A stretch of DNA of 64,000 nucleotides from Diaphorobacter ruginosibacter (GTDB lineage Bacteria; Pseudomonadota; Gammaproteobacteria; Burkholderiales; Burkholderiaceae_C): assembly GCF_014395975.1 (NCBI RefSeq), contig NZ_CP060714.1:4463686-4527685 (forward strand), written 5' to 3'. The translations under genes were made by a program, and so were the position numbers. The notes below the pieces were generated by a model. It had not been told where the DNA came from and made no database searches. It was given only the letters and a program-made list of their open reading frames with translations. The stretch's first letter is position 1; the number at the start of each line of letters is the position of its first letter. Positions 19,599 through 55,066 of the stretch are shown piece by piece.

Positions 19599-20213
19599 TT
19601 ATTTGGAAATGGCCAGCTTGACGCCGAAGCCGATGAGAAAAGTACCTGCCGTCTTTTCGAGCATGTTCACGATCCGTGGGTTGGCGCGCATGCGCTCGGC
19701 CAGGAAGTGCGTCAGCAGGATCATGATCGTCGAATAGAGCAGGGTCAGGGTCGCCACCGTGGCCGCCATTGCCGCAAAAGTGACAAGGCCGCGGTGTGTC
19801 TGCGGATTGACGAACAACGGAAAGAACGCCATGTAGAACACGATGGCCTTCGGGTTGAACAGCGTGATGATCGCGCCCTGCCGGAAGTAGTGATGCGGCC
19901 TGATGTTGACCACCGGCGCGTCGCCGGGCTTGGCGCGCAGCATGCGCCAGCCAATCCAGGCGAGGTAGGCGGCACCCACCCACTGCACCATGTGGAATGC
20001 TGCGGGATAGGCGGCCATCAGGCCGGCCACGCCACCCACCGCCGCCCACATGAGCATCTGGTCGGCACAGATCACGCCGAATGTGGAGGCAAAGCCGCCG
20101 CGGAAGCCCCCCTTGCTGGTCGACGTGATCAACGCCAGATTCCCGGGGCCGGGAATGCACAGGAACAGGATGATCGCGGCGACGAAAGCGCCGTAGTCCG
20201 AGATGCCAAACAT
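19599..20213 (-). CDS. LysE/RhtB-family amino acid exporter
   Basis: 204 aa, 6 TM, LysE family N-terminus (FLCIPGPGNLAL). Confidence 0.85.
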   Translation of the reverse strand: MFGISDYGAFVAAIILFLCIPGPGNLALITSTSKGGFRGGFASTFGVICADQMLMWAAVGGVAGLMAAYPAAFHMVQWVGAAYLAWIGWRMLRAKPGDAPVVNIRPHHYFRQGAIITLFNPKAIVFYMAFFPLFVNPQTHRGLVTFAAMAATVATLTLLYSTIMILLTHFLAERMRANPRIVNMLEKTAGTFLIGFGVKLAISK

Positions 20214-20265: not shown

Positions 20266-20922
20266 TCACGACTTGGGCCTCATCCACACAATGCAACGGT
20301 CTGCATCAAGGCCGGGCACTACCAGTTGTTCCACGTGAAACACCTCCACGTCGGCGCCCAGGGCGGCCTGCTCGTCATCGGTTTGCTTGCCCTTCATGGC
20401 CAGCCATACGGCGTGATCCGCGAGAGCCTGCCGCGACCATGTCGTGAAGTCGATCAGCGACGCGAATGCGCGGCAGCTCACGACATCGAACTTCTGCGTC
20501 AGCGTCTCGACCCGCGCATGGATTCCATGCAGATTGGGAAGGCGCAGGGCCGCCGCTGCCTGGTTGATGAACGCGGCCTTCTTGGCCACCGTATCGACGC
20601 AGCTCACATCCAGGTCCGGGCAGCAGATGGCGAACACCACGCCCGGCAGCCCTCCTCCCGACCCGACGTCCAGCAGTTTCTCGCGCTGGCCTGCGGGCAT
20701 GGCTGCGAGGTGCCGCTGCAGCGGCTTGACCGCAGCCAGGCTGTCCAGCAGATGGTGCGTGAGCATTTCCTGCGGATCACGCACGGATGTGAGGTTGTAG
20801 ACCTTGTTCCACTTCTGCAAGAGCGATTGGAACTCCATCAGCTGCGCGAGTTGGGATTCGCCCAGATCAAGCTCCAGGTCCTGCGCACCCTCGCGCAGTT
20901 GAGTCAACAGTTGCTCGCTCAT
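20266..20922 (-). CDS. rsmG: 16S rRNA (guanine527-N7)-methyltransferase RsmG (GidB)
   Basis: GidB family with SAM motif [12 protein letters not shown]; 4-nt overlap with mnmG. Confidence 0.9.
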
Positions 20923-22892
20923 GCCTCTGCTTCCACGCTCTGTGCCGTCATGTTGGCGAACTCCTTGAAGCCACCCTTCTTCAGGTGCACCATCAGCAGC
21001 GAGATGGCCGCCGGAGTCACCCCGGAAATGCGCGAGGCCTGGCCCAATGTCTCAGGCCGATGTTTCTGCAGCTTCTGGCGCACCTCGAACGATAGAGCGG
21101 CGACCTGCATGTAGTCCAGTTCCGCAGGCAGGCGCAGCTTCTCGAAATGAGCGGCGCGCTCCACCTCGTCCTTCTGCCGATCGATGTAGCCGGAATACTT
21201 GGCGGCGATGTCCACCTGCTCGATCACGGCCTCGCTGAGATCGCCCAGCGTTTCACGTGAAACATCGGGGCTTGCATACTTGCCGCCATTCATCTGCGTC
21301 AGATCCGCATAGCCGACATTGGGCCGGCGCAGCAGTTCGAACAGGTTGTACTCATGGTCGATGGCCTTCCCCAGGACACGCTCAGATTCTTCGGCTGGCA
21401 GGTTGCGCGGATTTACCCAGGTGGATTTCAGGCGCTCTGTTTCACGTGAAACAGCGTCGCGCTTGCGGCTGAATGCATCCCAGCGTGCATCGTCGATCAG
21501 GCCCATGTTGCGCGCAGCCTCGGTCAGGCGCATGTCGGCATTGTCTTCGCGCAGCTGCAGGCGGAATTCGGCGCGGCTGGTGAACATGCGATAGGGTTCG
21601 GTCACGCCCTTGGTGATCAGGTCATCCACCAGCACACCGAGGTAGGCCTCATCGCGGCGTGGCACCCAGGCCTCCTGCTCTCTGCATTGCAGCGCGGCGT
21701 TGATACCGGCGAACATACCCTGCGCCGCGGCCTCTTCGTATCCGGTGGTGCCGTTGATCTGTCCTGCAAAGAACAGGCCATGGATCTGGCGGGTCTCGAA
21801 GCTGCTCTTGAGCGCACGCGGATCGAAGTAGTCGTACTCGATCGCATAGCCGGGGCGCAGGATGTGGGCGTTCTCCAGTCCACGAATGCTGCGCACCAGG
21901 TCGTACTGGATGTCGAACGGCAGGCTGGTGGAAATACCGTTGGGGTAGTACTCGTTCGTGGTCAGGCCTTCGGGCTCCAGGAAAATCTGGTGGCTTTCCT
22001 TGTCCGCGAAACGGTTGATTTTGTCCTCGACGCTAGGACAGTAGCGCGGCCCCACGCCGTCGATCTTGCCGGTGAACATGGGACTGCGGTCGAAGCCCGA
22101 ACGGATGATTTCGTGCGTGCGCGCATTGGTGTGGGTGATCCAGCAGGGCATCTGCGTCGGATGCATGGCCACATGGCCCATGAAGCTGAAAACCGGCAGG
22201 ATGCCTTCGTTCACCCCGCCCGGCATGCCGTCGCCGGGCTGTTCCTCGCACTGGGAGAAATCGATGCTGCGGCCGTCGATGCGTGGCGGCGTGCCGGTCT
22301 TGAGGCGCCCCTGCGGCAGCTGGAGTTCCTTGAGGCGCGACGACAGCGTGACGGCCGGCGGGTCGCCGGCGCGGCCCGCCGCGTAGTTGTCCAGCCCCAC
22401 ATGGATCTTGCCATCGAGGAAGGTCCCCGCCGTCAGCACCACCGTGCGGCCTCGGAACTTGATCCCGACCTGCGTGACGGCACCCACTACCCGGTCACCC
22501 TCCACCATCAGGTCGTCCACCGCCTGCTGGAACAGCCACAGGTTCGGCTGATTCTCCAGTATGTCGCGGATGGCTGCCTTGTACAGAATGCGATCAGCCT
22601 GTGCGCGCGTGGCACGCACGGCGGGACCCTTGGAGCTGTTCAAGATGCGGAACTGGATGCCGCCCTTGTCCGTCGCCAGCGCCATGGCGCCACCCATCGC
22701 GTCCACTTCCTTGACGAGATGACCCTTGCCAATACCGCCGATGCTCGGGTTGCAGCTCATCTGCCCGAGCGTCTCGATGTTGTGCGAGAGCAGCAGGGTC
22801 TTGCAACCCATGCGTGCCGCAGCAAGCGCGGCTTCTGTTCCGGCGTGTCCGCCGCCGACTACGATGACATCAAAATTCTGGGGATACAACAT
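20919..22892 (-). CDS. mnmG: tRNA uridine-5-carboxymethylaminomethyl modification enzyme MnmG (GidA)
   Basis: [29 protein letters not shown], full-length GidA; ATG at 22892. Confidence 0.95.
21249..21264. promoter_or_regulatory. parS-like site (CGTTTCACGTGAAACA, 1 mismatch)
   Basis: 15/16 to the parS consensus TGTTTCACGTGAAACA. Lies inside mnmG and encodes VSRET. Confidence 0.7.
21438..21453. promoter_or_regulatory. parS site (TGTTTCACGTGAAACA, perfect 16-bp palindrome)
   Basis: Exact parS consensus. Inside mnmG, also encoding VSRET. Confidence 0.85.
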
Positions 22893-23124
22893 GAAAGGAG
22901 CGCCTTTCGGGGACGCGCTGGCCCGCAAACTACTACCCGTGCACCTCCGGCCGCGCGCAACCGGAAGCCAGGCCGATACGCTCATGCCGCAGGAACTGCG
23001 CTACATGGCCGGCCTGAAAGAGCCCAGCCTGAATGGGCCGGGAAACCCCTGATTTTCCCACGCTCCGGCCAATCTGTCCCGATGGCCCTCCAAGCAGCCC
23101 CCAGGATCTTCCGGATGGCACTGC

Positions 23125-23140
23125 TGTTTCACGTGAAACG
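23125..23140. promoter_or_regulatory. parS-like site (TGTTTCACGTGAAACG, 1 mismatch)
   Basis: Intergenic, upstream of mnmG. Confidence 0.75.
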
Positions 23141-23293
23141 CCGTCGCGACGCCTCCTCTTTTGGGGTCCATGGGTTGCCTATTTTTTAGTCAATCACCAT
23201 CAATGGCCCGATCCTGCAAACCCGCCCGAGTCGGTATAGCATGTTCGAGGAAGCTTTCATTCCACCGTCTTTCGATTGAAAAAAGGAAACCTC

Positions 23294-23902
23294 ATGAAGC
23301 TCTATTACTCGCCCGGCGCCTGTTCCCTGTCGCCACACATCGTGCTGCAGGAATTGGGCCTGCCCTACACCCCCGTGCTGGCCAGCACCAAGTCGCACAA
23401 GCTGCAGGACGGAACGGACTTCTACACCATCAACCCGCTCGGCTATGTCCCCCTGCTGGAGCTTGACGACGGCAAGCGCCTGCACGAAGGCCCGGCCATC
23501 GTCCAGTACCTGGCCGACCAGGCCCCCGACAAGAAGCTGGCTCCCGCCAACGGCACGTGGGAGCGCTACAAGCTGCAGGAATGGCTGACGTTCATCGGCA
23601 CCGAACTGCACAAGAGCTTCAGCCCGCTGTTCAATCCCGCATCCACCGACGACGTGAAGAATGGTGCGCGCGAGCGCATCACCGGCCGCCTGCAGTTCGT
23701 CGAGAACGAACTGGCCGGCAAGCAATACCTGATGGGCGAGCAGTTCACCGTGGCCGATGCCTACCTGTTCACCGTGACCAACTGGGCCAAGCTGACGGGC
23801 GTGGACCTCTCCGGCTTCCCGAACCTCAACCAGTACCGCGAACGCGTTGGCGCCCGCCCGGCCGTCGTGTCTGCGATGAAGGCCGAAGGCCTGATCAAGT
23901 GA
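23294..23902 (+). CDS. glutathione S-transferase
   Basis: MKLYYSPGACSLSPHIVLQELGLPY is a GST N-terminal thioredoxin-like domain. An alternative ATG at 23276 is possible. Confidence 0.85.
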   Translation: MKLYYSPGACSLSPHIVLQELGLPYTPVLASTKSHKLQDGTDFYTINPLGYVPLLELDDGKRLHEGPAIVQYLADQAPDKKLAPANGTWERYKLQEWLTFIGTELHKSFSPLFNPASTDDVKNGARERITGRLQFVENELAGKQYLMGEQFTVADAYLFTVTNWAKLTGVDLSGFPNLNQYRERVGARPAVVSAMKAEGLIK

Positions 23903-24085
23903 TCCCGCGCAGCATTCGCTGCAGCAGGTTCTAGGTTCCAGAGAGTCCGGCATGTCCGCAAGGGTGTGCCGGATTCTTTGTTTGAACGAACCTTCGTCGC
24001 AGCAAGGGCTTGTACCGTGGGAGTGCACGTCCGGAAGCGGCGGATTAACCTAGCCTCTTCTCGAACCTTGAGCACGAAAGGCACC

Positions 24086-25201
24086 ATGACCTCCGCATTG
24101 TTCTCCCCCATCCAGGTCGGCGATCTGCGCCTTGCCAATCGCATCGCGATGGCGCCACTCACGCGCAACCGCTCCCCCGATGCCATCCCCCAACCCGTCA
24201 CGGCCACCTACTATGAACAGCGGGCCAGTGCAGGCCTGCTGATCACCGAAGCGACGGCCATCGATCCGCAGGCGCAGGGCTATGCCGACGTGCCGGGCCT
24301 GTACTCCAGCGAGCAGCTCGATGGCTGGAAGCGGGTCACCGATGCGGTTCACGCACGCGGCGGCAAGATCGTCACGCAGCTCTGGCATGTGGGCCGCATC
24401 TCGCACAACGACCTGCAGCCGGGCCACCAGGCGCCTGTGGCGGCTTCCGCCATCCAGGCGCGAAGCAAGACCTACCTGATCGACAAGACCAGCGGCAAGG
24501 GCCACTTCGTCCCCACCTCCATGCCGCGGGCCCTCAAGGTGCAGGAGCTTCCCGGCATCGTGCACCACTATGTCCAGGCCGCCCGCAGCGCGGTGCAGAG
24601 CGCCGGCTTCGACGGTGTCGAGATCCACGCAGCCAACGGCTATCTGCTCGAGCAGTTCCTCAAGGACGGCGCCAACCAGCGTACGGACGACTATGGCGGC
24701 TCCATCGAGAACCGCGCGCGGCTGATGCTGGAGGTCACGCGCGCCGTCGTCGATGCCGTGGGCGGCGGCAGGGTCGGCATTCGCCTCTCCCCCGTCACGC
24801 CGGCCAACGACATCGTGGACAGCGCGCCGCAGCCCCTGTTCGAGTATCTGGCGCGGCAGCTCGCACCGCTGGGCCTCGCCTACATTCATGTGATCGAGGG
24901 CGCCACGGGCGGCTCGCGCGAGGTGGAAGGCCGTCCGTTCGACTACCTGAGCTTCAAGGACGCCTACCGCCAGCATGGCGGCAAGGGCGTCTGGATGGTG
25001 AACAACGGCTACGACGGCGCCATGGCCGAGAAGGCGATCGCCAGCGGCCATGCCGACATGGTGGCTTTCGGCAAGCTGTTCATCTCCAACCCGGACCTGG
25101 TGAGGCGCCTGCACGACAAGGCCCCGCTCAACCCCTGGGACCAGTCGACGTTCTACGGCGGCGGCGAGCACGGCTATACCGACTACCCGGCCCTCGGCTG
25201 A
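24086..25201 (+). CDS. Old Yellow Enzyme-family NADH:flavin oxidoreductase (NemA-like)
   Basis: MTSALFSPIQVGDLRLANRIAMAPLTRNR...QLWHVGRISH, 371 aa. Confidence 0.85.
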   Translation: MTSALFSPIQVGDLRLANRIAMAPLTRNRSPDAIPQPVTATYYEQRASAGLLITEATAIDPQAQGYADVPGLYSSEQLDGWKRVTDAVHARGGKIVTQLWHVGRISHNDLQPGHQAPVAASAIQARSKTYLIDKTSGKGHFVPTSMPRALKVQELPGIVHHYVQAARSAVQSAGFDGVEIHAANGYLLEQFLKDGANQRTDDYGGSIENRARLMLEVTRAVVDAVGGGRVGIRLSPVTPANDIVDSAPQPLFEYLARQLAPLGLAYIHVIEGATGGSREVEGRPFDYLSFKDAYRQHGGKGVWMVNNGYDGAMAEKAIASGHADMVAFGKLFISNPDLVRRLHDKAPLNPWDQSTFYGGGEHGYTDYPALG

Positions 25202-25210
25202 GTTCTCCGC

Positions 25211-25240
25211 GCACGGCCCTGCCCGCCTGGGGCCCGGGCC
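25211..25240. terminator. GC-rich hairpin between convergent genes (possible bidirectional terminator)
   Basis: CACGGCCC-N14-GGGCCGTG between the NemA-like stop (25201) and the giant gene stop (25250). No T-tract. Confidence 0.35.
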
Positions 25241-25249
25241 GTGCCGGTC

Positions 25250-28200
25250 TCACTTCCTCGTGTCGATCTCGTCGCGCGCCATCTTGTTGAAGGCGTTGTC
25301 GATCTCGTCGGCCCGCAGCGTGGGCTTGCCGTCGCCATGGCGGCGCAGCGCATCGATCTGCTCCTGCATGCGCGTGGCCACCTGCATGAGCACGCGGTGC
25401 AGGCCCAGCTGCTGGCGCCGCGAATGCTCCAGGTGATCTGCCACGGGCTGCATGGCCGTCTGAACGATGGCCCCCAGAAGCTGCGCAGAGCGCTCTGGCG
25501 CGTCATCTGCGTCCGCCCTACCCTCACCCCCAGGCACGGGCTTTTGAACGCTTGAGAGCGCGTTTCCGATGCGCTGCAGCGATTCATCCGTCGCACGCTG
25601 TGCCGCCTGCAGCTGTCCCAGCAATTCACCCCATTCGCCCTGCGAGCGCTGGGACTGCGCCTGCTGCAATTGCCCGAGCTTGAGCCAGAGCTGCCCCTGC
25701 TTCTCCGACTGCGACAGCTGCTTCTCGGTGCTGCTGTGCTGTGCGCCCGCCAGATCACGCGTCGCGGCCACCAGATCCACCAGCTGCGACGCCACGCGCG
25801 TACCGGCATCGGCCCCCGCACCGCCCATCGCCTTCTGGCGCAGGAACTCGGCCTTGATGTCGCCCCAGCGCGCCGCCTGCTCCGCATCGAGCGCACCGCG
25901 CAGCTCGCGCAGCTTGAGCAGGTTTTCCTCCGCGCCCGTGGTCAGCATCTGCGCCTCGCCCTGGTAGTGGTCGTCGAGCATCTGCTGCATTTCCGCATCG
26001 TTCATCACCGGCGTGATCTTCTCGGCCAGCTTGTTCATGTTGCGGTAGCTGCCCTGCAGCTTGAACGGCGGCTCCTTGCGGTAGTGATCATCCTGGGCCG
26101 CGCTCTGGATGTACTGTTGATTCACGTGAAACACGATCTCGCGCACCTTGAGCATGCGCTGCAGCGTGGCATCGATCTCGCGCAGCTCGGCGGACGAGTA
26201 CTCGTAGCTCAGCGCATTGCCCGACACCTCCTTGCCCTGTGCCTTCTCGATCAGCAGGTACAGGTCCTGCAGGCTGCGCGTCGCCATGGGGGCGAGCACG
26301 GCGTTGGAGGTCATGCTGTTCTCGATGTAGCTCAGCTTGAACACTTCCTCCATCCCGCCCAGCACATCGCCCAGGTTGTAGATATCGGCACGGTTGGCCA
26401 GCATGTCCGGAATCTTGAACACCTCGCCCGACTCTGTGTACGGGTTGCCCGACATGACGATGCAAAAGCGCTTGCCGCGCAGGTCATGGGTCTTGGTCTG
26501 CCCGCGCCACACGCCCTCGATGCGGCGCGTGCCGTCCGAGAGTGAAATGAACTTCTGCAGGAACTCCGGGTGCGTGTGCTGGATGTCGTCGATGTACAGC
26601 ATCACGTTGTTCGCCATCTCGAGCGCGAGGTTGAGCTTCTCGAGCTCCTTGGCGGCGGTGGCGTCGGGTGCCTGTGCGGGATCCAGCGAGCGCACGGAAT
26701 GGCCCAGCGCCGGGCCGTTGATCTTCATGAAGATCAGCCCCAGGCGGCTCGCCACGTACTCCATCAGCGTCGTCTTGCCGTAGCCCGGCGGCGAGATCAT
26801 CATCAGCAGGCCCATCTGGTCGGTACGCCGGGTCTCGCCCACCGCGCCGATCTGCTTGGCCAGGTTGTCGCCGATCACCGGCAGGTAGCTCTCGTTGATG
26901 AGCTTGTTGCGCACGAACGAGGTGAGCGGCCTGGCCTTGAACTCCTCCACGCGGATGCGCTCGCGGTAGCCCTTGAGCACCTGCTGGCGCAGCTGTTGAT
27001 AACGTTCGAACTCCGGCACGAAGATGCGGAAGTGGTGCGCCGCGCGCATGCCCAGGTCATCGATCTGCAGCGCCATGCGGCCGCCGTCGATGCGCGGGTG
27101 CTGGCCCAGCAGGCCCGTGACTTCGGCACGCAGGTCCACCGTGCTCACGGTGTTCGGCAGATGGCTTGCGCAGGTCAGCCAGGCCGCCGCCTCGCCGCAG
27201 TAGGCCAGCAGCGCATCGCCCTCTGCCGTCTTGAGCGCCCGGCACGCCGTCTGCAGCCAATGCAGCGCGCTGCGCCAGCGCTCCGACAGCGGCGCGACGT
27301 GATGGCCGTTGCTGCGCTGGTGGCGTGTGTCGCCCTGCCAGTACTGCAGCATCTCGTCCCATTGCTGCGGGTTCTGCGCATCGCTCCTGAGCACGCCCTG
27401 CAGTGCCGCAACCGCCGACTGGCCGTAGCTCGAGAAATGAAAGCGCAGCGCCTTCTGTGCGAGCTCCGCCTGCAGGTAGTTGGCGGCCGAACGGATGAGG
27501 CCGTCGATGTCGCCGTGCGCCGACAGGCCATGGAACAGTTCGAGCAGGCCGCCCTCCTCCGCAAAGGTCCGCAGTTGCACACCGATGTCGGCCTGCAGCG
27601 ACTGCAGTTCCGTCTCGCTTGCGAACAGCGCCTGCATGGACTGTGCGTGCTGCGCACGGCGCGGCCACTGTGCGATCGCGCCGGCCAGTTGCGGCTGCTG
27701 GATGCGCTCGTGCTCGCTCCAGAACAGCACGGCCAGCGCGCGTGCATCGGGGCCGAAACGCAGCACGCCGGCCGCGTCGCGCAGCGGCAGCAGCGTCTGC
27801 AGGATGAGCGCCGCATCATGGTCGTGGATGCCGCGCTCGTAGCCTTCGCGGTAGCGGGGCGCGGCAAACTCGCGCACCGCCTGGGTGAGCGCGGCGTGGT
27901 CGAGCGCCAGTTGCCGCAACCGCACCTCATCCCAGCCATCGGCGCGATTGCGCGCGGCCAGCAGCAGGCTGAGGGCAAGGTATTCGCCACGGTAGAACTG
28001 CGGCGACTCCGCCGGCGTCGACACATCCCAATAGGCCTGCAACTGCGCAAGCTCGGGGTTGTCCACCGCCTCGAAATACTCGGTGCCCACCAGATGCAGG
28101 AACAGCTCCCGCCCCTCCGCACCCCGCGGTAGCAGCGTGAGCTCCAGGTCCTGGTTGCCCACGCTGAACTTGTGGCGCCCGAGCTTGATGACGTTGCCGC

Positions 28201-30802
28201 CGCCATCGAACAGGTCCGTGCGGTCCTGCAGCGAACGGAAGGCCTGGTCGCGCAGCGTCTTCACGCGGGTCTCGATATCGTCCGCCTTCACGGGGTCGAA
28301 CAGCTCCGTGCGCAGCCGCTCGGCCAGTTCCTTGAGCTTGTTGATCAGCGGATCGCCCGCGAAGAAGGCATGCAGCGCCTCGTTCGAGGCCAGCTTTTCC
28401 GTGCGCTTGGGCAGGCTCTGCACGATGCGCAGCGCCGCGTCCAGCACGCCCTGCGCTCGGCGCTGGCGCTCGTCCTGCAGCGACTGGCGGCGGGCCTCGA
28501 AGGTCTCGAGCAGTTCCTCGCGCTTGGCGACGATGTCGGAGAGAAACTGCTCGTGCTCCCCGAACTGGCCTTCGATCTCCTCGAGCTGGACCAGCAGCCG
28601 CGCAAGCTGCTCATCGCACTTCTCCGGCGTCTGCGCAAGTCCCAGCGCATTGACGATGCTCTGCGAAAACAGCGCCAGCTGCGCCGCGAACTGCGCCACC
28701 TGCTCCGAGCTTCCAAGGCTGCTGCGGCGCTGCTCGGCGCGCGCACGCACCTGATTCAGGCGCGAATAGATCACCGAGATGCGGTCCACCACCTGCGTGC
28801 GCTGCGTGGCATCGTCGATCTTCAGTCCGCCCATCAATTCGGAGAGCATGTCGAGCGCAGCGGAGATGCGCGTCATCTCGGCCAGCGGCTCCTTGAGCAG
28901 CAGCACCGTGGCCGCCGCCTGCGCCTGCTGGTCGAGCGCCTGCAGTTCATCCACGTAGGGCTGCAGCGCCGCATCCGTGGCGACGAATGCCGCCGTGCGC
29001 TGCGACACATCGCCCTGCGCCTCGTTCACGGAAGCCACCATGGCATCGATGGCGGCCGTGTCCACATAGCGCAGCTCGCGCGTGGACATGAGCTGGCCGC
29101 GCAGCCTGGCCAGCTCATCGAGCGCGGTGACATGCTCGTCCACCGTCGCCCAGTCGCTGGTGCGCAGGTGCTTGAGCAGGCCTGCATGCTGCGTGGACAC
29201 GGCGCTCATCGCGCGCGTCGACGCCTGCCGGATGCTCTCGACCTTCTCGTATTCGTCGATCACCGCATCGCCCGTGGCGGCAATGCCGTGCAGCACCTCG
29301 TTCATCTGCGCGAGCTGCTGCGTGTTGATCCATTGATGGCGCTCGAACAGGCGGCGCGTGGTATCGATCAGGCGTTCATAGCGTGCCAGCGACACCTCGG
29401 GCGCGGCGATTTCCTTGCGCACGCTGTAGATGTCGGAGATGCCGCTGACCAGCTCCGCATTGCCGATGCGGCCGAGGAAGGTGTCCTTCTGCGGCTGGCT
29501 GGCGGCATAGTCCTCGGAGGCGAACGGCGTGCGCCAGATCTGCATGGGGTGCACGCGCGTGGCCTCGTCGCTGTCGGCCGCGAAGATCACGATCCGGCCG
29601 TCCTCGAGCCTCGCGTAGCCGTGGCAGACGATGGGCGGCTGCAGCGCGCGCTCGATCAGGTTGTACTTGAACAGCGCCATGCGTCCGCTGCCCGGCTCGT
29701 AGAAGATGTACAGCACGTCCTCGCCGTTGGGCGAGCGGATGCTGCGCCGGAAGCGCATGCCCTGCATGTCCTGCTCGAACCTCCGGTGCTCGCCGCTTTG
29801 CAGGTAGTAGCCGCCCGGAAAGATGATGCCGTGGTCGTCGGGCAGCTGGATGCAGGCACCCGCGATCGCGTCCATGCGCAAGACCTGCTGCGACAGCGTG
29901 TTGTAGATGAGGTAGCGCCACTGCTCCTCGCGGTACGGCAGGATCTTCAGCAGCACCATGCTGCCGACCTGCGCATACTCGAACACCGCATCGTCGAGCG
30001 ACTGGTTGGCCTCCTGCACCGGCTCGCTGTAGATGCCGAGGCCGTCGTTGGTGTTGTTCTCCACCTTCACGGTGAGCGTGCCGCCCAGCGTCTCGACGAA
30101 CACCTTGTCGAGGATGTTCATGTGCGCATGGCGGCCCTGGACGATCTGCTCGCGTCCCGCGCGCTGCCATTCGAAGTCGTAGGCCGATGGCGGCAGGATG
30201 TCGCGTTCGCCGCGGTTGTCTATGTACCTGACCGCCTTGCCGTCCGGCGAGATCGACCAGCGGAACACGCGCACGTCGGTGATGCGCTCGCCGATCTGGA
30301 AACTTGCGAGCAGCTTGCTGTCGCGCACGACGAGCTGCATGAGCCGCGTGTTCTTGTAATAGGCATAGAGCTCCTGGAAGTCCTGCACGAAGCTCTGGAT
30401 GCCCAGGAAACTGTCCTTGAGGTCGACCGGTGCCACGTCATAGCCGTGCTCGCCCTCCTCGAGCCGGTAGAGCGCAAACACATCCTCCACGCGCGTGGTC
30501 TGCTTGAGCCCCATGAAGACGTTGTAGCCGAACAGCAGGTATTCGCCCACCTGCGTGATGTCGCGGCCCACGCAGTTGTTCTCGGTGCGCACCCGCATGC
30601 GGCCCAGCACCTCCATCTGGCTGCGGCCGAACTCCTCAAGACGTTCCTCGTTGAGCTGGCGCACCAGCGATTCGAGCTGCTCGCCCTGCGCGGCCAGGCG
30701 CCTGGCCAGCACTTCATACGATCCACCGCTGGCAACGGCCTGATCGACGACGGAGGCGGGTTGTTGTTCGGTTGGATGAGGCGATTCGGACATCTTGATC
30801 AC
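25250..30802 (-). CDS. giant (1850 aa) multidomain protein with an embedded MoxR/dynein-type (AAA_5-like) AAA+ ATPase domain
   Basis: Uninterrupted 5.55-kb ORF. Walker A is MMISPPGYGKTTLMEYV (nt about 26776-26802, residue about 1335). Walker B is VMLYIDDIQH. The MoxR-like sensor region is FCIVMSGNPYTESGEVFKIPDMLANRADIYNLG. N-terminal about 470 aa is beta-rich. Long alpha-helical/coiled-coil stretches flank the ATPase; no TM helices. Start is GTG 30802 or ATG 30793. Confidence 0.85.
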   Translation of the reverse strand: MIKMSESPHPTEQQPASVVDQAVASGGSYEVLARRLAAQGEQLESLVRQLNEERLEEFGRSQMEVLGRMRVRTENNCVGRDITQVGEYLLFGYNVFMGLKQTTRVEDVFALYRLEEGEHGYDVAPVDLKDSFLGIQSFVQDFQELYAYYKNTRLMQLVVRDSKLLASFQIGERITDVRVFRWSISPDGKAVRYIDNRGERDILPPSAYDFEWQRAGREQIVQGRHAHMNILDKVFVETLGGTLTVKVENNTNDGLGIYSEPVQEANQSLDDAVFEYAQVGSMVLLKILPYREEQWRYLIYNTLSQQVLRMDAIAGACIQLPDDHGIIFPGGYYLQSGEHRRFEQDMQGMRFRRSIRSPNGEDVLYIFYEPGSGRMALFKYNLIERALQPPIVCHGYARLEDGRIVIFAADSDEATRVHPMQIWRTPFASEDYAASQPQKDTFLGRIGNAELVSGISDIYSVRKEIAAPEVSLARYERLIDTTRRLFERHQWINTQQLAQMNEVLHGIAATGDAVIDEYEKVESIRQASTRAMSAVSTQHAGLLKHLRTSDWATVDEHVTALDELARLRGQLMSTRELRYVDTAAIDAMVASVNEAQGDVSQRTAAFVATDAALQPYVDELQALDQQAQAAATVLLLKEPLAEMTRISAALDMLSELMGGLKIDDATQRTQVVDRISVIYSRLNQVRARAEQRRSSLGSSEQVAQFAAQLALFSQSIVNALGLAQTPEKCDEQLARLLVQLEEIEGQFGEHEQFLSDIVAKREELLETFEARRQSLQDERQRRAQGVLDAALRIVQSLPKRTEKLASNEALHAFFAGDPLINKLKELAERLRTELFDPVKADDIETRVKTLRDQAFRSLQDRTDLFDGGGNVIKLGRHKFSVGNQDLELTLLPRGAEGRELFLHLVGTEYFEAVDNPELAQLQAYWDVSTPAESPQFYRGEYLALSLLLAARNRADGWDEVRLRQLALDHAALTQAVREFAAPRYREGYERGIHDHDAALILQTLLPLRDAAGVLRFGPDARALAVLFWSEHERIQQPQLAGAIAQWPRRAQHAQSMQALFASETELQSLQADIGVQLRTFAEEGGLLELFHGLSAHGDIDGLIRSAANYLQAELAQKALRFHFSSYGQSAVAALQGVLRSDAQNPQQWDEMLQYWQGDTRHQRSNGHHVAPLSERWRSALHWLQTACRALKTAEGDALLAYCGEAAAWLTCASHLPNTVSTVDLRAEVTGLLGQHPRIDGGRMALQIDDLGMRAAHHFRIFVPEFERYQQLRQQVLKGYRERIRVEEFKARPLTSFVRNKLINESYLPVIGDNLAKQIGAVGETRRTDQMGLLMMISPPGYGKTTLMEYVASRLGLIFMKINGPALGHSVRSLDPAQAPDATAAKELEKLNLALEMANNVMLYIDDIQHTHPEFLQKFISLSDGTRRIEGVWRGQTKTHDLRGKRFCIVMSGNPYTESGEVFKIPDMLANRADIYNLGDVLGGMEEVFKLSYIENSMTSNAVLAPMATRSLQDLYLLIEKAQGKEVSGNALSYEYSSAELREIDATLQRMLKVREIVFHVNQQYIQSAAQDDHYRKEPPFKLQGSYRNMNKLAEKITPVMNDAEMQQMLDDHYQGEAQMLTTGAEENLLKLRELRGALDAEQAARWGDIKAEFLRQKAMGGAGADAGTRVASQLVDLVAATRDLAGAQHSSTEKQLSQSEKQGQLWLKLGQLQQAQSQRSQGEWGELLGQLQAAQRATDESLQRIGNALSSVQKPVPGGEGRADADDAPERSAQLLGAIVQTAMQPVADHLEHSRRQQLGLHRVLMQVATRMQEQIDALRRHGDGKPTLRADEIDNAFNKMARDEIDTRK
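26117..26132. promoter_or_regulatory. parS-like site (TGATTCACGTGAAACA, 1 mismatch)
   Basis: Inside the giant AAA+ gene. Confidence 0.6.
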
Positions 30803-30958: not shown

Positions 30959-33043
30959 TCAGGCAGCAGGCGGCTGCTTGCCGTTGTCGGAGCCGCTGCC
31001 GGAGCCGCTGTTGCCCAGCAGCGCGCCCACACCGCCCTTGCTGTTCAGGAACTTGTTCAGCAGCTCCTGCACGATCGGGCTCTTGCCGGACACGCCCTCG
31101 ATCGCCTTGCCCACGGAGAGCGCCTTGGCGAAGTTGTCGAAGAACGCACCCTCGCCGCCCACGATGTCGATGTTGGCCTTGCTGAGCGCCGAGGACAGCA
31201 CCTCGGCCTGCTCCTTGGCCACGGTCTTGTTGGCATCGATGGCCGCGAGTGCCTGCTCGAAATTCTTCTCGAGCTGCATGCGGAACTCCTCGTGCGAGCG
31301 CGCCTGATCCGACAGGCCGCCGAGCGCCGTGAACTTCTCGGTCAGGCCCTTGGCTTCCGCGAACAGCTTGTCGCGCAGCACATCGGCTTCGGACTGGCCC
31401 ACCTCGCGTGTGACCGTGGCCCTGGTCGCACCCACCTGCGCCTCGCCGCGCGCCTGTGCAAGCAGACGCTCTTCGAGCACCTTGGCGTCGGCCAGGCCCT
31501 GCTTCTCGTTGGCATCGGCCGTGGCCTCGATCACGCGGGCATGCGCAAGACCCTTTTCCTGGTCGCCCTTGGCCTCGGCAATGAGGCGCTCGGCGATCAC
31601 CTTGGCCTGTGCCAGGCCTTCCTTCTCGATCGCGGCAGCGGTGACCTCGCGCACCTTCGCGTCGGCCAGGCCGGGCGCCGCACGCTCCACCTCGATGGCC
31701 TCGGCCATCTTCTTCTTGGCCTCGGCGGTCTTGCCGGCGGCCTCGAGCTCGGCCTGCGCGAGCGTGGTGACTTCCACCGCCTTGTGGCGCGACGCGGTCT
31801 CGTCGGCCTCGGCCTTCTTCACCTGGCGCACCAGGTCTTCCTGCGCCTGCGCCTCGGCGGTCAGCACCGTGACCTGCTTCATGCGCTCGGCCTCGGAAAC
31901 CACGCGCACTTCCTTGATGCGTTCCTCTTCCTGCGCCACGGTCTTTTCCACCGCCACGCGCTCGCGGACCACGTTGGCAATGTTGGCCTTCTCGACCTCG
32001 ATGGCCTTTTCCTTCTCGATGCGCTGCAGCTCCACCTCACGCTCGCGCGAGACGATCTCGAGCTCCTTGGCACGCGTGACCTTCTCGATCTCGATGACCA
32101 CCGCGCGCTCGCGGTTCTGCTGCGCCACGGCCACCTCGCGGGCCTTGTTCTCCTCGCGGATGTCCAGTTGCTCCTGCGTCTGGATGCGGGCCTGCTCGGC
32201 CTTCAGGCGCTCTTCCTCCTGCACCTTCTGGGTCTCGGCCTGCTCCCGCGCCTGGATGGTCGCGATCTCGCGCTTCTGCCGCGCTTCCGCATCGGCCTGC
32301 TGCCGAGCCAGGGCCAGCATGGCTTCCTTGGTTTCCACGTTCTTCTTGGTGATCGCGAGATCGGCGTTGCGCTCCAGTTCGTTGGTCACGATGTTCTGGT
32401 TGGCGGTCAGTTCGGTGATCTTGCGGATGCCCTCGGCGTCGAGGATGTTGTTGGGATCGAGCGAGGACTTCGGTGTCTGTTCGAGGTAGTCGATCGCCAC
32501 GTCCTCGAGCACGTAGCCGTTCAGGTCGTTGCCGATCACGTGGATGATCTGGTCGCGGAAATCCTGGCGGTTCTCGAACAGCTTCACGAACTCGATCTGC
32601 TTGCCGACGGTCTTGAGCGCCTCGGAGAACTTGGCGTTGAACAGCTCGTTCACGGCCCCCTTGTCGGAGGCGCGGTCCACGCCGATGGACTTGGCCACCT
32701 TGAGCACGTCTTCGGCCGTCTCGTTGACGCGCAGGTAGAAGGCCACTGTGATGTCCGCACGCATGTTGTCCTTGCAGATCAGTCCTTCCTTGCCGCGCCG
32801 GTCGATCTCCAGCGTGATCAGCGAGATCTGCATGAACTCCTTCTTGTGGATCACGGGCAGCACCAGGCCGCCGGTGAACTTCACCTTGGGCTGCGACGTG
32901 GTGTCGTTGATGATCAGCGCCGTGCCCTGCGGCACCTTGATGTAGAAGGCCTTGACCATGGCCAACATGGCAAAGATCAGCACGACGATGACCGCAACGG
33001 CCACGCCGAGAACGATGTACCACTCGGAGAAGTTCAAGCTCAT
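30959..33043 (-). CDS. flotillin-family (SPFH/Band 7, YqiK-like) membrane protein
   Basis: N-terminal TM helix, SPFH domain, then a long EA/EQ-rich coiled coil (AEAEARQKREIATIQAREQAE...), 694 aa. Confidence 0.9.
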   Translation of the reverse strand: MSLNFSEWYIVLGVAVAVIVVLIFAMLAMVKAFYIKVPQGTALIINDTTSQPKVKFTGGLVLPVIHKKEFMQISLITLEIDRRGKEGLICKDNMRADITVAFYLRVNETAEDVLKVAKSIGVDRASDKGAVNELFNAKFSEALKTVGKQIEFVKLFENRQDFRDQIIHVIGNDLNGYVLEDVAIDYLEQTPKSSLDPNNILDAEGIRKITELTANQNIVTNELERNADLAITKKNVETKEAMLALARQQADAEARQKREIATIQAREQAETQKVQEEERLKAEQARIQTQEQLDIREENKAREVAVAQQNRERAVVIEIEKVTRAKELEIVSREREVELQRIEKEKAIEVEKANIANVVRERVAVEKTVAQEEERIKEVRVVSEAERMKQVTVLTAEAQAQEDLVRQVKKAEADETASRHKAVEVTTLAQAELEAAGKTAEAKKKMAEAIEVERAAPGLADAKVREVTAAAIEKEGLAQAKVIAERLIAEAKGDQEKGLAHARVIEATADANEKQGLADAKVLEERLLAQARGEAQVGATRATVTREVGQSEADVLRDKLFAEAKGLTEKFTALGGLSDQARSHEEFRMQLEKNFEQALAAIDANKTVAKEQAEVLSSALSKANIDIVGGEGAFFDNFAKALSVGKAIEGVSGKSPIVQELLNKFLNSKGGVGALLGNSGSGSGSDNGKQPPAA

Positions 33044-33105
33044 GGTTTCAGTTCCTCACAGAGAAAATCACAAAAGAAAAACGGGAAAAAATCAGGGTCG
33101 GCCGA

Positions 33106-33777
33106 TCAGCGCAGCGGCAGATCCAGGCCTTCGAATTCGGCCTTGCTCACCACGCGCCAGGCGTTGTGTTCCGGCATGCGCTCGATGAGCACGACCTCGG
33201 TGCCACGCGGCAGTTCGCGGTCGGGCGAGCGCATCTGCACGTTGAGTCCGCCGCCGCCGTCCTCGACGCTGCCGTAGCCCTGGCTCGCGTTGACCACGGC
33301 GCTGCGCACCAACCCCGTGCGGCCCAGGACGACCTTGGCCTCCTCGGGAGGCGCCACCATGGCGATCGCCTTGCGCAACGGCCGCAGCACGATGACGGTG
33401 GCAACGAAGCCCAGCACCGATGCGGCCGCGAACAGCCCGGTGCCGGTGACGATGTTCAGGAGCGTCCAGCCCTCGGGCATGGGCACGAGGTGCGCCAGAG
33501 CGTAGCTGATGAGCCAGGAGAGCAGGAACAGCACGGTCAGGATCACCGTGAGCGGAATGCCACCCAGCCCCACCTTGAGCAGCAGCCCGGCGAGCGCACC
33601 GATGGAATCCTCGGCACCGTGCCCATGGTGGCTGCCGTCGAACAGCACCCAATGGTCCATGGAGTCCACTTCCACCAGCCCGAAAATGGCGATCACCCAG
33701 TACAGCAGCATGCACAGCAGCAGCATGCCGAAAATGAATGTCGGGAATCCCAGCGCGTAATGCAAGAACGCCGTCAT
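33106..33777 (-). CDS. YqiJ/NfeD-like inner-membrane protein (DUF1449-type: N-terminal TM helices and C-terminal OB-fold)
   Basis: Same architecture as E. coli YqiJ. The C-terminal beta domain is GTEVVLIERMPEHNAWRVV. GAAGGAGGG RBS. Sits immediately upstream of flotillin, as in yqiJK. Confidence 0.75.
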   Translation of the reverse strand: MTAFLHYALGFPTFIFGMLLLCMLLYWVIAIFGLVEVDSMDHWVLFDGSHHGHGAEDSIGALAGLLLKVGLGGIPLTVILTVLFLLSWLISYALAHLVPMPEGWTLLNIVTGTGLFAAASVLGFVATVIVLRPLRKAIAMVAPPEEAKVVLGRTGLVRSAVVNASQGYGSVEDGGGGLNVQMRSPDRELPRGTEVVLIERMPEHNAWRVVSKAEFEGLDLPLR

Positions 33778-40468: not shown

Positions 40469-40599
40469 TGTCCCGCAAACATCCTGTCAGCCACTACCTG
40501 TACCCCACCAACCCGCTCCAGAGACGCTGGCCCGATCAGTTATGCAAGCTCGCTGCTCCATTGTGGCCAATGGCTTTTTCAACACCTCTCATGCTTCTA

Positions 40600-41030
40600 T
40601 TTTTATAGCAATAAATCAGTTATTCACGTGGTTTATATCACTATTTCATGAAAAATTGACGATTGTGGATAACTTTGAGGATCAATGACTGACAACCCAC
40701 CAGTTATTCACAGGCCGCCGAATTCCGTCCGATTTATCCCCATTCGACGTGCACCAGCAGCCGGGTCGGCTCCACATGCTTGCGATTCCTGCAAACCATT
40801 GAAGAAAAAAGAAAAAAACAGCTTATCCACAGGTGAGTTGCTTACTTATTACTACTAACATTCTTCAATAACACCTTTAAAGAACAACCACAGGAAAACC
40901 TTGGAGACGCCGCGCCCGGAAAAAACGGAAGGGATGCAGGAGTTCAGGGAAAAATACACAGTTATCCCTGGAAAATGCGCAGTTCCTGTGGATAACCTTG
41001 AATAACTCTGGATAACTTCTGCCCGCAACA
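40600..41030. other. DnaA-box cluster with AT-rich tract (candidate oriC or DnaA-regulatory locus)
   Basis: Perfect boxes at 40663-40671 (TGTGGATAA), 40704-40712 (TTATTCACA), 40822-40830 (TTATCCACA) and 40988-40996 (TGTGGATAA), plus several 8/9 boxes. Local AT-rich sequence at 40590-40660 and 40800-40870. Confidence 0.5.
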
Positions 41031-48860: not shown

Positions 48861-48907
48861 ACTGAATACGCATGTCTCCGGGCCGTTCACTCGGTCCCGT
48901 TCAGATC

Positions 48908-48940
48908 CCGCCAGGGCCTCGGCCCGGCGGGATTTTTTTC
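48908..48940 (+). terminator. rho-independent terminator after dctA
   Basis: CCCGCCagGGCC-tcg-GCCCgGCGGG then ATTTTTTTC, abutting the rdgC stop. Confidence 0.6.
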
Positions 48941-51208: not shown

Positions 51209-51862
51209 ATGAGCGACGCCTTGGAAACCATCATGTTCAATACCCTTCATCGGTCCCCGAGCGGGGACTTCGCACCACGGCAACGCCCGTGGGCGCGACA
51301 CACATTCGCCATCTTCACCCTTGCACTGACTGCGTCCGCAACTTCGGCGATTGCACAGACATCTGTGGATAACTCTGGTGATCTCTCGCGTGCCAAGTCC
51401 ATCTACGTACAGGGAAGCTGGGCCGAGCACGGCACCGACGCCGCCACCGTCGGCGTTACCCTGCCCTGGAAAGAGTGGAAAGCTGACCTCTGGGGCGGCC
51501 AGGTGCGGGGCCATTGGGATCTTTATGTGTCCCGCCTGTCCTTCGATGGGCGGCGCAGCTATGACAGCACCTGGATGTTTGGCGTCAAGCCCGTGTGGCG
51601 CTGGCGCCCGGACGCGGGGCGCTCTCCCTGGTTCGCAGAGGCCGGCGTCGGGCTGACCTACATGACCGACCGCTACATCACCGTCCACAAGGAATTCAGC
51701 ACCTCGTTCAATTTCGCCACTCATCTGGGTGTGGGCTACAGCTTCGGCGAGCAGCGCCAGCATGAGGTGCAACTGCGCGTGGAGCATGTCTCGAATGCGG
51801 GCATCAAGGAACCCAATCCCGGCGAAAACTTCGTGCAGATCCGATACGGCTACCACTTCTGA
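51209..51862 (+). CDS. PagL-like lipid A 3-O-deacylase / acyloxyacyl hydrolase family outer-membrane protein
   Basis: Signal peptide, beta-barrel-like alternation, and a C-terminal HVSNAG (H-x-S-N catalytic motif). Confidence 0.65.
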   Translation: MSDALETIMFNTLHRSPSGDFAPRQRPWARHTFAIFTLALTASATSAIAQTSVDNSGDLSRAKSIYVQGSWAEHGTDAATVGVTLPWKEWKADLWGGQVRGHWDLYVSRLSFDGRRSYDSTWMFGVKPVWRWRPDAGRSPWFAEAGVGLTYMTDRYITVHKEFSTSFNFATHLGVGYSFGEQRQHEVQLRVEHVSNAGIKEPNPGENFVQIRYGYHF

Positions 51863-51878
51863 CCAGGTTGATCACTTG

Positions 51879-52260
51879 TTATCCACAGCTAAAACCCGCA
51901 TTCAGAGCGGATGTGGATAAACTTGTACAGAATTTTCAGAGCAACTTCGATTTATCCACAGCAAAGTGGAAAACTTCGAAGTTGTTCCCATTTCAGGTAC
52001 AGCGGCAAGATAGCTCGAAGCACATGGTTTGATTTTTTCCAAATGATTGAGAACAATGGAGAAAATCAATTTATCCACAGGCTGTTCGGTCCTCTACTAC
52101 TAACAACATATATAAATAACACTATTCAAGAACAACTTTGCTAGTGCTGTGCCTCATATGGGCGCGCCTTTGAATTTCACATTGCGGTAAATCATCGTTA
52201 TTTGATGAATAAATAAGCAAGTTTCACCGCTTCCTTGCCCGGCGTTTCTTTTTCTTCTTC
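51879..52260. other. DnaA-box cluster plus AT-rich DUE-like tract (strong oriC candidate)
   Basis: Four perfect boxes within 200 bp: 51879-51887, 51913-51921 (inverted), 51953-51961 and 52071-52079. They are followed by about 170 bp of AT-rich sequence (52090-52260: ctactactaacaacatatataaataacactattc...). Confidence 0.6.
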
Positions 52261-52267
52261 TTTTTGA

Positions 52268-53014
52268 ATGACCTCCACCCGACCCGTCGCACTCATTACC
52301 GGTTCCACCAGCGGGATCGGCGCCGCTATCGCCCGTTGCCTGTCGCGCGACGGATTTTTGGTGGTGCTTCATTCGCGAAGCAGTGTGGAAACCGGCAGGG
52401 CGATGGCCCTGGAACTGTCCCCTGCCCTTTACATCCAGGCCGATCTCGCAGACGAGGAGGAACGCCGGAATCTTGTAGAGCAAACCGTTGCCGCATGCGG
52501 CCGAATCGATCTGCTTGTGAATAACGCGGGCATAAGTCAGGTGATCCCGCACGGCGACCTTCTGGCGGCCACGCCCGAGGTCTGGCAACAACTGCACGAG
52601 GTGAACGTGGTCGCGCCTTTCCGGTTGATTGCACATGCCGAAGCCGCATTGCGCGCGTCTGCCCGGCTGAGCGGCAGGCCTGCTTGCGTGATCAACATCA
52701 GCTCGCATGCCGGTGTGCGCCCCAAGGGCGCGTCCATCCCCTATGCGGCAGGCAAGGCCGCGCTCAACCACATGACACGCCTGCTCGCACTGAGCCTTTC
52801 ACCGGAAATCCGCGTGAACGCCGTTGCACCGGGGCTGGTGGAAACGCCCCTGACGGAAAGCTGGACCGCTGCGCGGGAACTGTGGAACACCAAGTCTCCC
52901 ATGCGGCGCGGAGCACAGCCCGAGGACATCGCGCAGGTGGTGGCGATGCTGGCTGCGTCGGACTATCTGACCGGTGAAGTGGTGCTGTCGGATGGCGGGT
53001 TGAATCTGACCTGA
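52268..53014 (+). CDS. SDR-family oxidoreductase
   Basis: TGSTSGIGAAIA Rossmann motif and the YAAGK catalytic motif. Confidence 0.9.
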   Translation: MTSTRPVALITGSTSGIGAAIARCLSRDGFLVVLHSRSSVETGRAMALELSPALYIQADLADEEERRNLVEQTVAACGRIDLLVNNAGISQVIPHGDLLAATPEVWQQLHEVNVVAPFRLIAHAEAALRASARLSGRPACVINISSHAGVRPKGASIPYAAGKAALNHMTRLLALSLSPEIRVNAVAPGLVETPLTESWTAARELWNTKSPMRRGAQPEDIAQVVAMLAASDYLTGEVVLSDGGLNLT

Positions 53015-54171: not shown

Positions 54172-54268
54172 ATTGTGGGAAAAGAGTGAATATTTGTTTG
54201 AGATATAGGAAACCCGAAGTCTAGACTGAATGTCATCCCGCAGATAGACGATGTTTAGGAGACAAGGC

Positions 54269-55066
54269 ATGGCGTACGAAACGCTCGAAATCGAAAACCA
54301 CGGCGCGGTGCGCCGCATCCTGCTGGCCCGCGAGGCGCAGCGCAATGCACAGAGCCAGCAGTTGCTGGACGAGTTGATGGCCGCCTTCGACGAGGCGCGT
54401 GTGGATAACTCCGTGAACGTGGTGATTGTGGGCGGCAAGGGTGCGCATTTCTCGGCGGGCCACGACCTGAAGCAGGCCCAGGCCGAGCGCGCGAACTTCA
54501 CCGTGGAGGAGCGCTGGGCCTATGAGGAACTGCGCTACTTCGACTACTCGCTCAAGATCCGGGACTTTCCCAAGCCCACCATCGCGCAGGTGCAGGGCGC
54601 CTGTGTGGCGGGCGGTTTCATGATCGCCAACATGTGCGACCTGGTGGTCGCGGGCGACAGCGCGTTCTTCTCCGACCCCGTCGGTCACACGCTCGGCGCG
54701 GCGGCCACCGAAGTGCTGATCCACCCCTGGGTGATGGGTGCGCGCAAGGCCAAGGAAATGCTCTTCACGGGTGGCAAGCTGAGCGCTCAGGAAGCGTGCG
54801 ACATCGGCATGGTCAACCGCGTGGTGCCGGATGCGGAACTGGCCGACGCCGCGCTCGCGATGGCGCAGCAGATCGCCAAGGCGCCCCCCTTCGGGCTCCG
54901 GCTCATCAAGCGCTCGATCAATCGCTCGCTCGACACGCAGGGCCTGCGCGCGTCGCTCGAGGCGCATTTCGACACGCACCAGCTTTCGCACCTGAGCGAA
55001 GGTTTTCTCACGGCGCGCGACCGCGGACTGGCGAGCGCAATCCAGAAGAACGCAGGAAAGGCCTGA
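54269..55066 (+). CDS. enoyl-CoA hydratase/isomerase family protein
   Basis: AGGAGA RBS. Crotonase fold with VVIVGGKGAHFSAGHDL. Confidence 0.85.
   Translation: MAYETLEIENHGAVRRILLAREAQRNAQSQQLLDELMAAFDEARVDNSVNVVIVGGKGAHFSAGHDLKQAQAERANFTVEERWAYEELRYFDYSLKIRDFPKPTIAQVQGACVAGGFMIANMCDLVVAGDSAFFSDPVGHTLGAAATEVLIHPWVMGARKAKEMLFTGGKLSAQEACDIGMVNRVVPDAELADAALAMAQQIAKAPPFGLRLIKRSINRSLDTQGLRASLEAHFDTHQLSHLSEGFLTARDRGLASAIQKNAGKA

Follow-up and report, generated by a model that had tools for sequence, protein, structure and literature searches.

Chromosomal replication in this Comamonadaceae bacterium probably starts, or mainly fires, within a module of ~245 bp (module B, 51899-52144, + strand) that lies between a pagL-like gene and an SDR gene in the window, as we call the whole 64-kb stretch of DNA that was analysed. 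This is a prediction from sequence. The same region had been put forward as the best oriC candidate in the original prediction, and the choice is supported by its DnaA boxes, its DnaA-trios, a tract predicted by SIDD analysis to open, the orientation of the SDR gene, a cumulative GC-skew minimum at 52830, and orthologous modules that lie at skew minima in most related contigs. Module B would be one member (M1) of a paralogous pair of origin modules kept by the family, the partner of which, module A (M2), would in this lineage have moved to a place 11 kb further left.

Perfect DnaA boxes (TTATCCACA) are strongly concentrated in two parts of the window. There are 10 of them against 0.05 expected from shuffled sequences, an enrichment of ~200-fold, and boxes with no more than one mismatch number 28 where 3.0 would be expected; all 10 perfect boxes are confined to 40.66-41.0 kb or 51.36-54.4 kb. 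Four of them, at 51879(+), 51912(-), 51952(+) and 52071(+), span 51879-52079 and are all enclosed by the 405-bp spacer between pagL (51209-51862, +) and the SDR gene (52268-53014, +), so the claim of four exact boxes, one inverted, between these two genes is borne out. Perfect boxes also occur outside the module at 51364 (inside pagL), 53051 (just past the SDR stop codon), and 54400 (within an enoyl-CoA hydratase ORF, 54251-55066), which brings the count around module B to seven in 3.1 kb. The GC content of the spacer is 0.37-0.43, compared with ~0.66 window-wide. Whether it holds the most AT-rich stretch of the window, as had been claimed, depends on scale: it does at 170 bp (51970-52139, GC 0.359), but at 60-100 bp the interval 40587-40686 is more AT-rich. 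The LTXXQ, pagL and SDR genes (50.2-53.0 kb) have third-position GC below that of the rest of the window and fail a GC3 > 0.78 filter.

In module B, read from left to right, a group of three to four DnaA boxes precedes an R1-type box, which is followed by a 14-nt spacer, a DnaA-trio run (CTACTACTA), and an AT tract. Box 1 (51912-51920) is a perfect box on the minus strand that reads TGTGGATAA on the plus strand and is kept in the A, B and M1 classes of module copies; box 2 (51952-51960, +) is perfect here and has at most one mismatch in all classes; and box 3 (51982-51990, +) is a relaxed box, TTGTTCCCA, that serves as a class signature of B and M1. Box 4 (52071-52079, +) is the perfect R1-type box and faces the trios. 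An IHF-like motif (CAAATGATTGAGA, 52040-52052, +), a consensus match only, with one mismatch to YAANNNNTTGATW, is found 18 nt upstream of box 4. The additional perfect box at 51879-51887 (+) is species-specific, and the orthologue in Comamonadaceae bacterium UBA2121 (L020) is without it. Besides box 4, the boxes at 51879, 51912 and 51952 together with the relaxed box at 51982 form the kind of box array that Weigel lists among the components of a proteobacterial origin (Weigel 2025, bioRxiv 10.1101/2025.08.05.668638).

Under the rule for the basal unwinding system (BUS), three or more DnaA-trios (3'-NAN-5') lie no further than 16 bp from a DnaA box (Pelliciari et al. 2021, PMC8287927). In module B, box 4 is followed by a 14-nt spacer (52080-52093) and then by three perfect GAT trios (CTA CTA CTA, 52094-52102, +; bottom strand 3'-GAT GAT GAT-5'). 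The R1-type box of module A (40823-40831, +) is likewise followed by a 14-nt spacer and by TTA TTA CTA CTA (40846-40857, +), equivalent to AAT AAT GAT GAT, and the same box-spacer-trio arrangement is kept in 51 copies of the module. For the adjoining DNA, we calculated stress-induced opening with our own SIDD code (copolymer energetics, with an exact sum over up to three open runs), which recovered the 13-mer region of Escherichia coli oriC as a control. Within a 2.5-kb domain around module B, the only destabilised site is 52096-52139 (P(open) 0.65-0.78 at sigma -0.055 to -0.06), the predicted DNA unwinding element (DUE), at a distance of 16 bp from the box at 52071-52079. Of the 170-bp AT tract first proposed as the unwinding element, only ~44 bp (52096-52139) are both conserved and predicted to unwind; 52145-52260 is not conserved. 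In the framework of Weigel (2025), module B has both a predicted destabilised DUE and an R1-type box about two helical turns away that faces it. For seven loci in which the two modules stand in tandem, the predicted sites are found only at the trio-side tracts of M1 and M2.

Both modules belong to a family that can be recognised across related genomes. A profile built with nhmmer from 20 module copies finds exactly two matches in the window, module A with 152 bits and module B with 149 bits (E 3e-44), and it finds two same-strand matches in essentially every related Comamonadaceae locus with enough sequence. The related loci (n=58) were gathered by a metagenome search anchored on rdgC, which lies between A and B; they are partly redundant, many are close kin, their taxonomy is inferred from similarity, and they represent only ~6-10 independent lineages. 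In the alignment of 51 copies, which includes module B, the near-invariant positions are box 1, CTGGG, box 2, TTGT, CACA..TT, box 4, and CTCTACTACTAC..CTAT followed by ATA-rich DNA, while the DNA between these motifs has diverged to ~50% identity with spacer length kept. Nine loci with rdgC relatives (68-79% identity; L054-L056, L058, L059, L061, L064, L065, L077) have no module in the fetched flanks, so linkage between the origin and rdgC is not universal.

A simple pattern, TTATCCACAGG-N(8-24)-TACTACTAAC, matches Diaphorobacter caeni, Comamonas sp. BIGb0124, a Variovorax MAG, and UBA2121, the last with orthologues of both A and B on one contig. The same pattern also has six matches in unrelated phyla, and five of the six lie within 8 kb of dnaA, in two Corynebacterium genomes, Streptococcus porci, a Eubacterium MAG, and an Anaerolineales MAG (L014, L015, L017, L018, L021). 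Because these five matches lie near dnaA in unrelated genomes, the combination of box and trios marks real origins elsewhere, and they serve as a positive control. In the rdgC-anchored relatives, a regular expression requiring TTATCCACAGG has no match, owing to variation at the GG and at the third base of the box.

Two layouts of the pair are found, and their outer flanks are syntenic. The tandem layout runs DUF3297(-), Gate(-), rdgC(-), pagL(+), M1, a spacer of 0.25-0.4 kb, M2, and a gene for a protein of 1500-1690 aa (-). The split layout runs DUF3297(-), A, Gate(-) ... rdgC(-), pagL(+), B, with the modules separated by 3.0-11.0 kb, the largest distance being that in the window. The genes between the modules include those for phosphatidylserine decarboxylase and a pseudouridine synthase in Comamonas, and for an NtrC-like activator and an RpoN-like sigma factor in Variovorax. 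Genes that flank the modules vary by genus as well (SDR, the 1500-1690-aa gene, an ABC transporter). The 1500-1690-aa gene, with the N-terminus ...YAILDTPPED..., stands to the right of M2 in L024, L034, L037, L046, L051, L057 and L078, and no homologue of it was found in the 64-kb window. An 8.3-kb block from the SDR gene to ACAD2 (52.2-60.55 kb) occupies the place where tandem-type relatives have M2 and the large gene, which shows gene content beside the origin to be variable.

The box 3 signature and an upstream palindrome lead us to equate B with M1 and A with M2: A and M2 have in common the third box TT(A/G)TCCCC and the palindrome AGCGCTT-N6-AAGCGCT. Orthology is not cleanly resolved when the copies are clustered by UPGMA. 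Recent gene conversion between A and B can be rejected, given that orthologues in the closest relative (A-A 0.71/0.82, B-B 0.58/0.76) are more alike than paralogues within a genome (0.55/0.61). The trios and the AT tract are the only parts in which lineage-specific variants appear to be shared by the copies in one genome. The inverted repeat AGCGCTT-N6-AAGCGCT, preceded by GCTAT..AGCT, is located ~45-60 bp ahead of box 1 of the second module, in the M1-M2 spacer of L034 and L050 and upstream of A in L043, and is degenerate in the window (~40600-40640); it may be a protein-binding site.

Module A (40658-40896, +), between the DUF3297 gene (-) and the Gate-domain gene (-), aligns pairwise with module B over ~240 bp in the same orientation, 11 kb to its left. 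The elements that the two have in common are, in order, a reverse box, a forward box ~30 bp on, a relaxed box in third place, the motif CACATG-TT, an ATTGA/A-rich stretch, another forward box with GG after it, the 14-nt spacer, TACTACTAAC, and AATAACAC..AAGAACAAC. The boxes of A are at 40664(-), 40704(+, TTATTCACA), 40734(+, TTATCCCCA) and 40823(+), and additional reverse boxes follow to the right (40987-41015, -; a perfect one at 40987 and TTATCCAGA at 41007), which are kept in D. caeni (L012) and UBA2121 (L016). The boxes at 40664, 40704 and 40734, with those at 40987 and 41007, also amount to an array in the sense of Weigel (2025), and the whole AT-rich box cluster of this region spans 40.56-41.06 kb. 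Region A differs in where it is predicted to open: the trio-side tract is weak (P 0.14), and an AT tract to the left of the module (40593-40663, SIDD P 0.71-0.98) dominates as its easiest-melting site. That tract is probably the promoter region of the DUF3297 gene, and it is lineage-specific, more distant A-class orthologues not being AT-rich there. Box 1 has on average 0.33 mismatches to the consensus in the A class and 3.1 in M2 of tandem pairs; such closeness to the consensus in copies that have been split from M1 suggests selection for autonomous recruitment of DnaA. An IHF-like motif with at most one mismatch is present in eight of nine A-class copies and in module B of the window, and it is well placed in the A class. 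Judged from their sequence, the consensus box 1 and the well-placed IHF-like motif of A-class copies argue that A is still functional. Module B was originally ranked as the strongest candidate. That ranking holds on skew and gene orientation and not on the number of boxes: the paralogue A matches it in profile score, has trios as well, and has more boxes on its flanks.

The cumulative GC-skew minimum of the window falls at 52830, by module B, although it could be a local one, as the window exposes 64 kb of the replicon. Taken on this window skew, B lies within the 0-20 kb from the cumulative minimum that Weigel (2025) gives for origins. Among related loci that extend 4 kb or more to either side of the modules (n=15; skew is noisy in 20-kb loci), the minimum is at the module pair in 11 and 4.6-7.4 kb beyond the modules in four. 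It is within ~350 bp of the pagL-side module (M1/B) in most loci and just past M2 in L057. In split genomes, it is found at B and not at A (+102 bp in L026 and L027, and 52830 in the window). In nearly all loci, GC skew changes from negative on the left side of the modules to zero or positive on the right side, even beside the 5-kb (-) gene. If A were the origin, the coding-strand skew of genes between A and B would be expected to shift by ~0.07 relative to genomes in which both modules lie to their right; the values are 0.034 versus 0.052 for Gate and 0.056 versus 0.041 for rdgC, and this lack of a shift favours B. A fit of GC3 skew in the window that separates replication from coding effects has a flat likelihood from 39 to 57 kb and does not separate A from B, and its best fit, at 58-60 kb, is driven by one gene. 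Counts of a KOPS-like motif, GGGNAGGG (putative for this family), are 8+/29- to the left of the modules, 10+/15- between them, and 14+/13- to the right; the motif is thus biased in orientation on the left but not on the right, and is not decisive.

Gene orientation distinguishes the two modules as well. Weigel's rule is that transcription of the DUE-side gene runs away from the origin (Weigel 2025). The SDR gene (+) points away from B in this manner, whereas at A the Gate gene (-) points into the unwinding side. The rule is also broken at M2 of tandem relatives, where the 1500-1690-aa (-) gene points towards the modules.

The original prediction had placed a parS cluster and rsmG-mnmG-parAB about 30 kb away, and they are indeed 26-35 kb from module B: mnmG, rsmG, a lysE-family gene, parA and parB are on the minus strand at 17.3-23.0 kb, and five parS sites (TGTTTCACGTGAAACA, at most one mismatch; 0.07 expected) lie at 20327-26133, in and around rsmG and mnmG. 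These sites and genes are co-oriented with a leftward fork. A sixth parS-like site, with three mismatches, occurs at 37713, and the LysE-family exporter gene (19599-20213, -), between rsmG and parA, breaks the usual mnmG-rsmG-parA-parB run. Consistent with what had been noted for the window, tblastn with an E. coli DnaA query found no dnaA there or in any of the related loci; the same search found dnaA in the unrelated control loci. At 25250-30802 (-) lies the gene for a protein of 1850 aa in which DUF3686 ('ATPase involved in DNA repair') occurs together with DUF7902 and AAA domains, and the next two ORFs (30959-33777, -; 694 and 223 aa) have no Pfam match; together the three may be a defence or repair system. 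The gap between the dicarboxylate symporter gene and rdgC has a weak Rfam match to Betaproteobacteria_toxic_sRNA (48873-48940, +; 23 bits against a gathering score of 50, E 0.5) that is probably due to chance.

From the motifs, their conservation, the pairing of the modules, and the position of the skew switch, we infer DnaA binding, unwinding and firing at module B along the following lines. DnaA would bind the high-affinity boxes 1, 2 and 4, and ATP-DnaA would oligomerise from the R1-type box 4 (52071-52079) over the 14-nt spacer onto the trios (3'-GAT GAT GAT-5', 52094-52102). The AT tract at 52096-52139 would then be melted by DnaA and the helicase loaded there. The leftward fork would copy pagL, rdgC and eventually mnmG-parAB, and the rightward fork would enter the SDR gene. 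Module A probably still binds DnaA, to judge by its boxes, without being the main replication start, and its role may be that of a second origin, of a helper, or of a DnaA-regulatory site.

That both modules fire, comparably or under different conditions, as is reported for oriC1 and oriC2 of Pseudomonas aeruginosa, is in our view a minority possibility. It would account for the nearly equal profile scores, for the R1-type box, 14-nt spacer, trios and AT tract kept in both modules, for the retention of both copies in every informative lineage, for the consensus box 1 kept by copies split from M1, and for the trio and AT-tract variants common to the copies of one genome, and it has a precedent in P. 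aeruginosa. It sits less well with a skew minimum at B and left-replichore skew in the segment between the modules, and with the weakly destabilised trio-side tract of A and the transcription of Gate into its unwinding side; B has all of the sequence features listed for an oriC, whereas A departs from the flanking-gene rule and its trio-side DUE is weak. A somewhat better, though still tentative, case can be made for the broader statement that Comamonadaceae carry, as an ancestral pair, paralogous origin modules that are each complete, that both take part in initiation (as two separate origins or as one double origin working cooperatively), and that can be parted by 0.25-11 kb of unrelated genes. 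We regard it as improbable that A is the real origin and B a secondary DnaA-binding site. Region A does have more boxes (three perfect and four near-perfect, on both sides of the AT tract), the most AT-rich 60-100-bp tract of the window, its strongest SIDD site beside the reverse box 1 with DUF3297 pointing away, and the IHF-like site conserved in its class. Against this, the skew minima and gene skews indicate B, distant A-class orthologues do not share the left AT tract, and M2, the equivalent of A in tandem genomes, has a degenerate box 1.

It is similarly improbable that neither module is an origin, and that both are instead DnaA-titrating or regulatory sites (datA- or DARS-like) or DnaA-controlled promoters, with oriC beside dnaA outside the window. 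The lack of dnaA in the window and in all related loci would fit such an arrangement, as would the IHF-like motifs, and the oriCII region of P. aeruginosa also regulates gidAB-parAB transcription. Titration or promoter roles, however, do not need the conserved trios and unwinding tract, scans of modules A and B found no sigma-70-like promoter, and the variation of flanking genes by genus argues against a promoter specific to one gene. The skew switch coincides with the modules, and a switch ~90 kb from dnaA, beside three perfect boxes, is also known from the related Cupriavidus metallidurans. Finally, if the spacer were AT-rich by chance, or were a mobile element, plasmid-derived oriV or non-coding RNA, the low GC would be explained and nothing else. 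Box enrichment of ~200-fold and two syntenic copies per genome contradict all of these; modules A and B have no similarity to any of 72,556 plasmids and no Rfam match, and this group of explanations is practically refuted, so that we give it almost no weight. Initiation mainly at module B remains our preferred reading.

An origin in itself is ordinary. What is unusual is that a family keeps two alignable copies of a whole origin module, unwinding machinery included, and that natural genomes supply both tandem and split versions of the pair. According to a review-type source, P. aeruginosa is the only experimentally supported two-origin bacterial chromosome. The paired arrangement has so far been reported mainly for Pseudomonas and relatives, and the conserved twin-module architecture is an addition to this. 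Should both copies prove active, Comamonadaceae would serve as a natural system in which to study why two origins are kept in one bacterium, how close to each other they have to be, and whether the two copies divide the roles of origin and regulator between them. If both modules initiate, the family would count as the second lineage with dual origins, one that is independent of Pseudomonas and Halomonadaceae, and as the first whose origins are demonstrably duplicates. In practical terms, oriC, which in Comamonadaceae is not beside dnaA, can be found with the module profile in genomes and metagenome bins of the family, and this location can be used for rotating genomes to a common start, for estimating growth rates from sequencing coverage, and for building vectors.

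In the literature searched, we found no description of a Comamonadaceae oriC or of paired origin modules; the comparisons below are with other systems. The datA and DARS loci combine a box cluster with an essential IHF site and do not require an unwinding element; most A-class copies and module B of the window have an IHF-like motif, but trios and an AT tract are conserved in both copies. In the bipartite origins of Bacillus subtilis and Helicobacter pylori, the two sub-regions flank dnaA, are not paralogues, and have an unwinding element in only one of them. Two box clusters are found here as well, but dnaA does not lie between them, and trios and an AT tract are present in each module. Closer in its parts is the proteobacterial oriC of E. 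coli, Pseudomonas and Halomonadaceae, which consists of a DUE, trios, R1 box, IHF site, and box array (Weigel 2025). Read on its minus strand, B has the elements in this same order; in both cases the gene next to the DUE points away, and E. coli oriC is likewise not beside dnaA. Differences are that the neighbours here are pagL and SDR, near rdgC, instead of mnmG or rpmH, that B has no GATC clusters or 13-mer repeats, and that its IHF match is weak. With the BUS of B. subtilis and other phyla (PMC6669920, PMC8287927), module B shares a box, a distance of at most 16 bp, at least three trios of the commonest type (3'-GAT-5'), and AT-rich DNA; the proximal box is single here and a tandem pair there, and unwinding is predicted here.

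Among Burkholderiales, chromosome CHR1 of C. metallidurans CH34 has its skew switch ~90 kb from dnaA, directly preceded by ~213 nt with three perfect boxes (PMC2864759), and on chromosome c1 of Burkholderia cenocepacia the position of the origin is uncertain between two DnaA-box clusters (PMC4948915). Neither report describes a repeated module, trios, or pairing. The nearest precedent is the dual origin, in which two complete origin-like regions lie kilobases apart: oriC1 and oriC2 of P. aeruginosa are separated by ~5 kb, and predicted pairs in Halomonadaceae, which with those of Pseudomonadaceae extend the comparison, by 20-30 kb. In the P. aeruginosa type, oriC1 is by rpmH/dnaA and oriC2 by mnmG, whereas here mnmG is 18-29 kb off and dnaA is absent. 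The Comamonadaceae pair belongs to Betaproteobacteria and occupies other loci, and its copies are paralogues alignable over their full length that stand head-to-tail in a single spacer in most relatives. Common to the dual-origin lineages and to the Comamonadaceae pair (0.25-11 kb apart) is an ancestral configuration in which one copy has possibly been downgraded.
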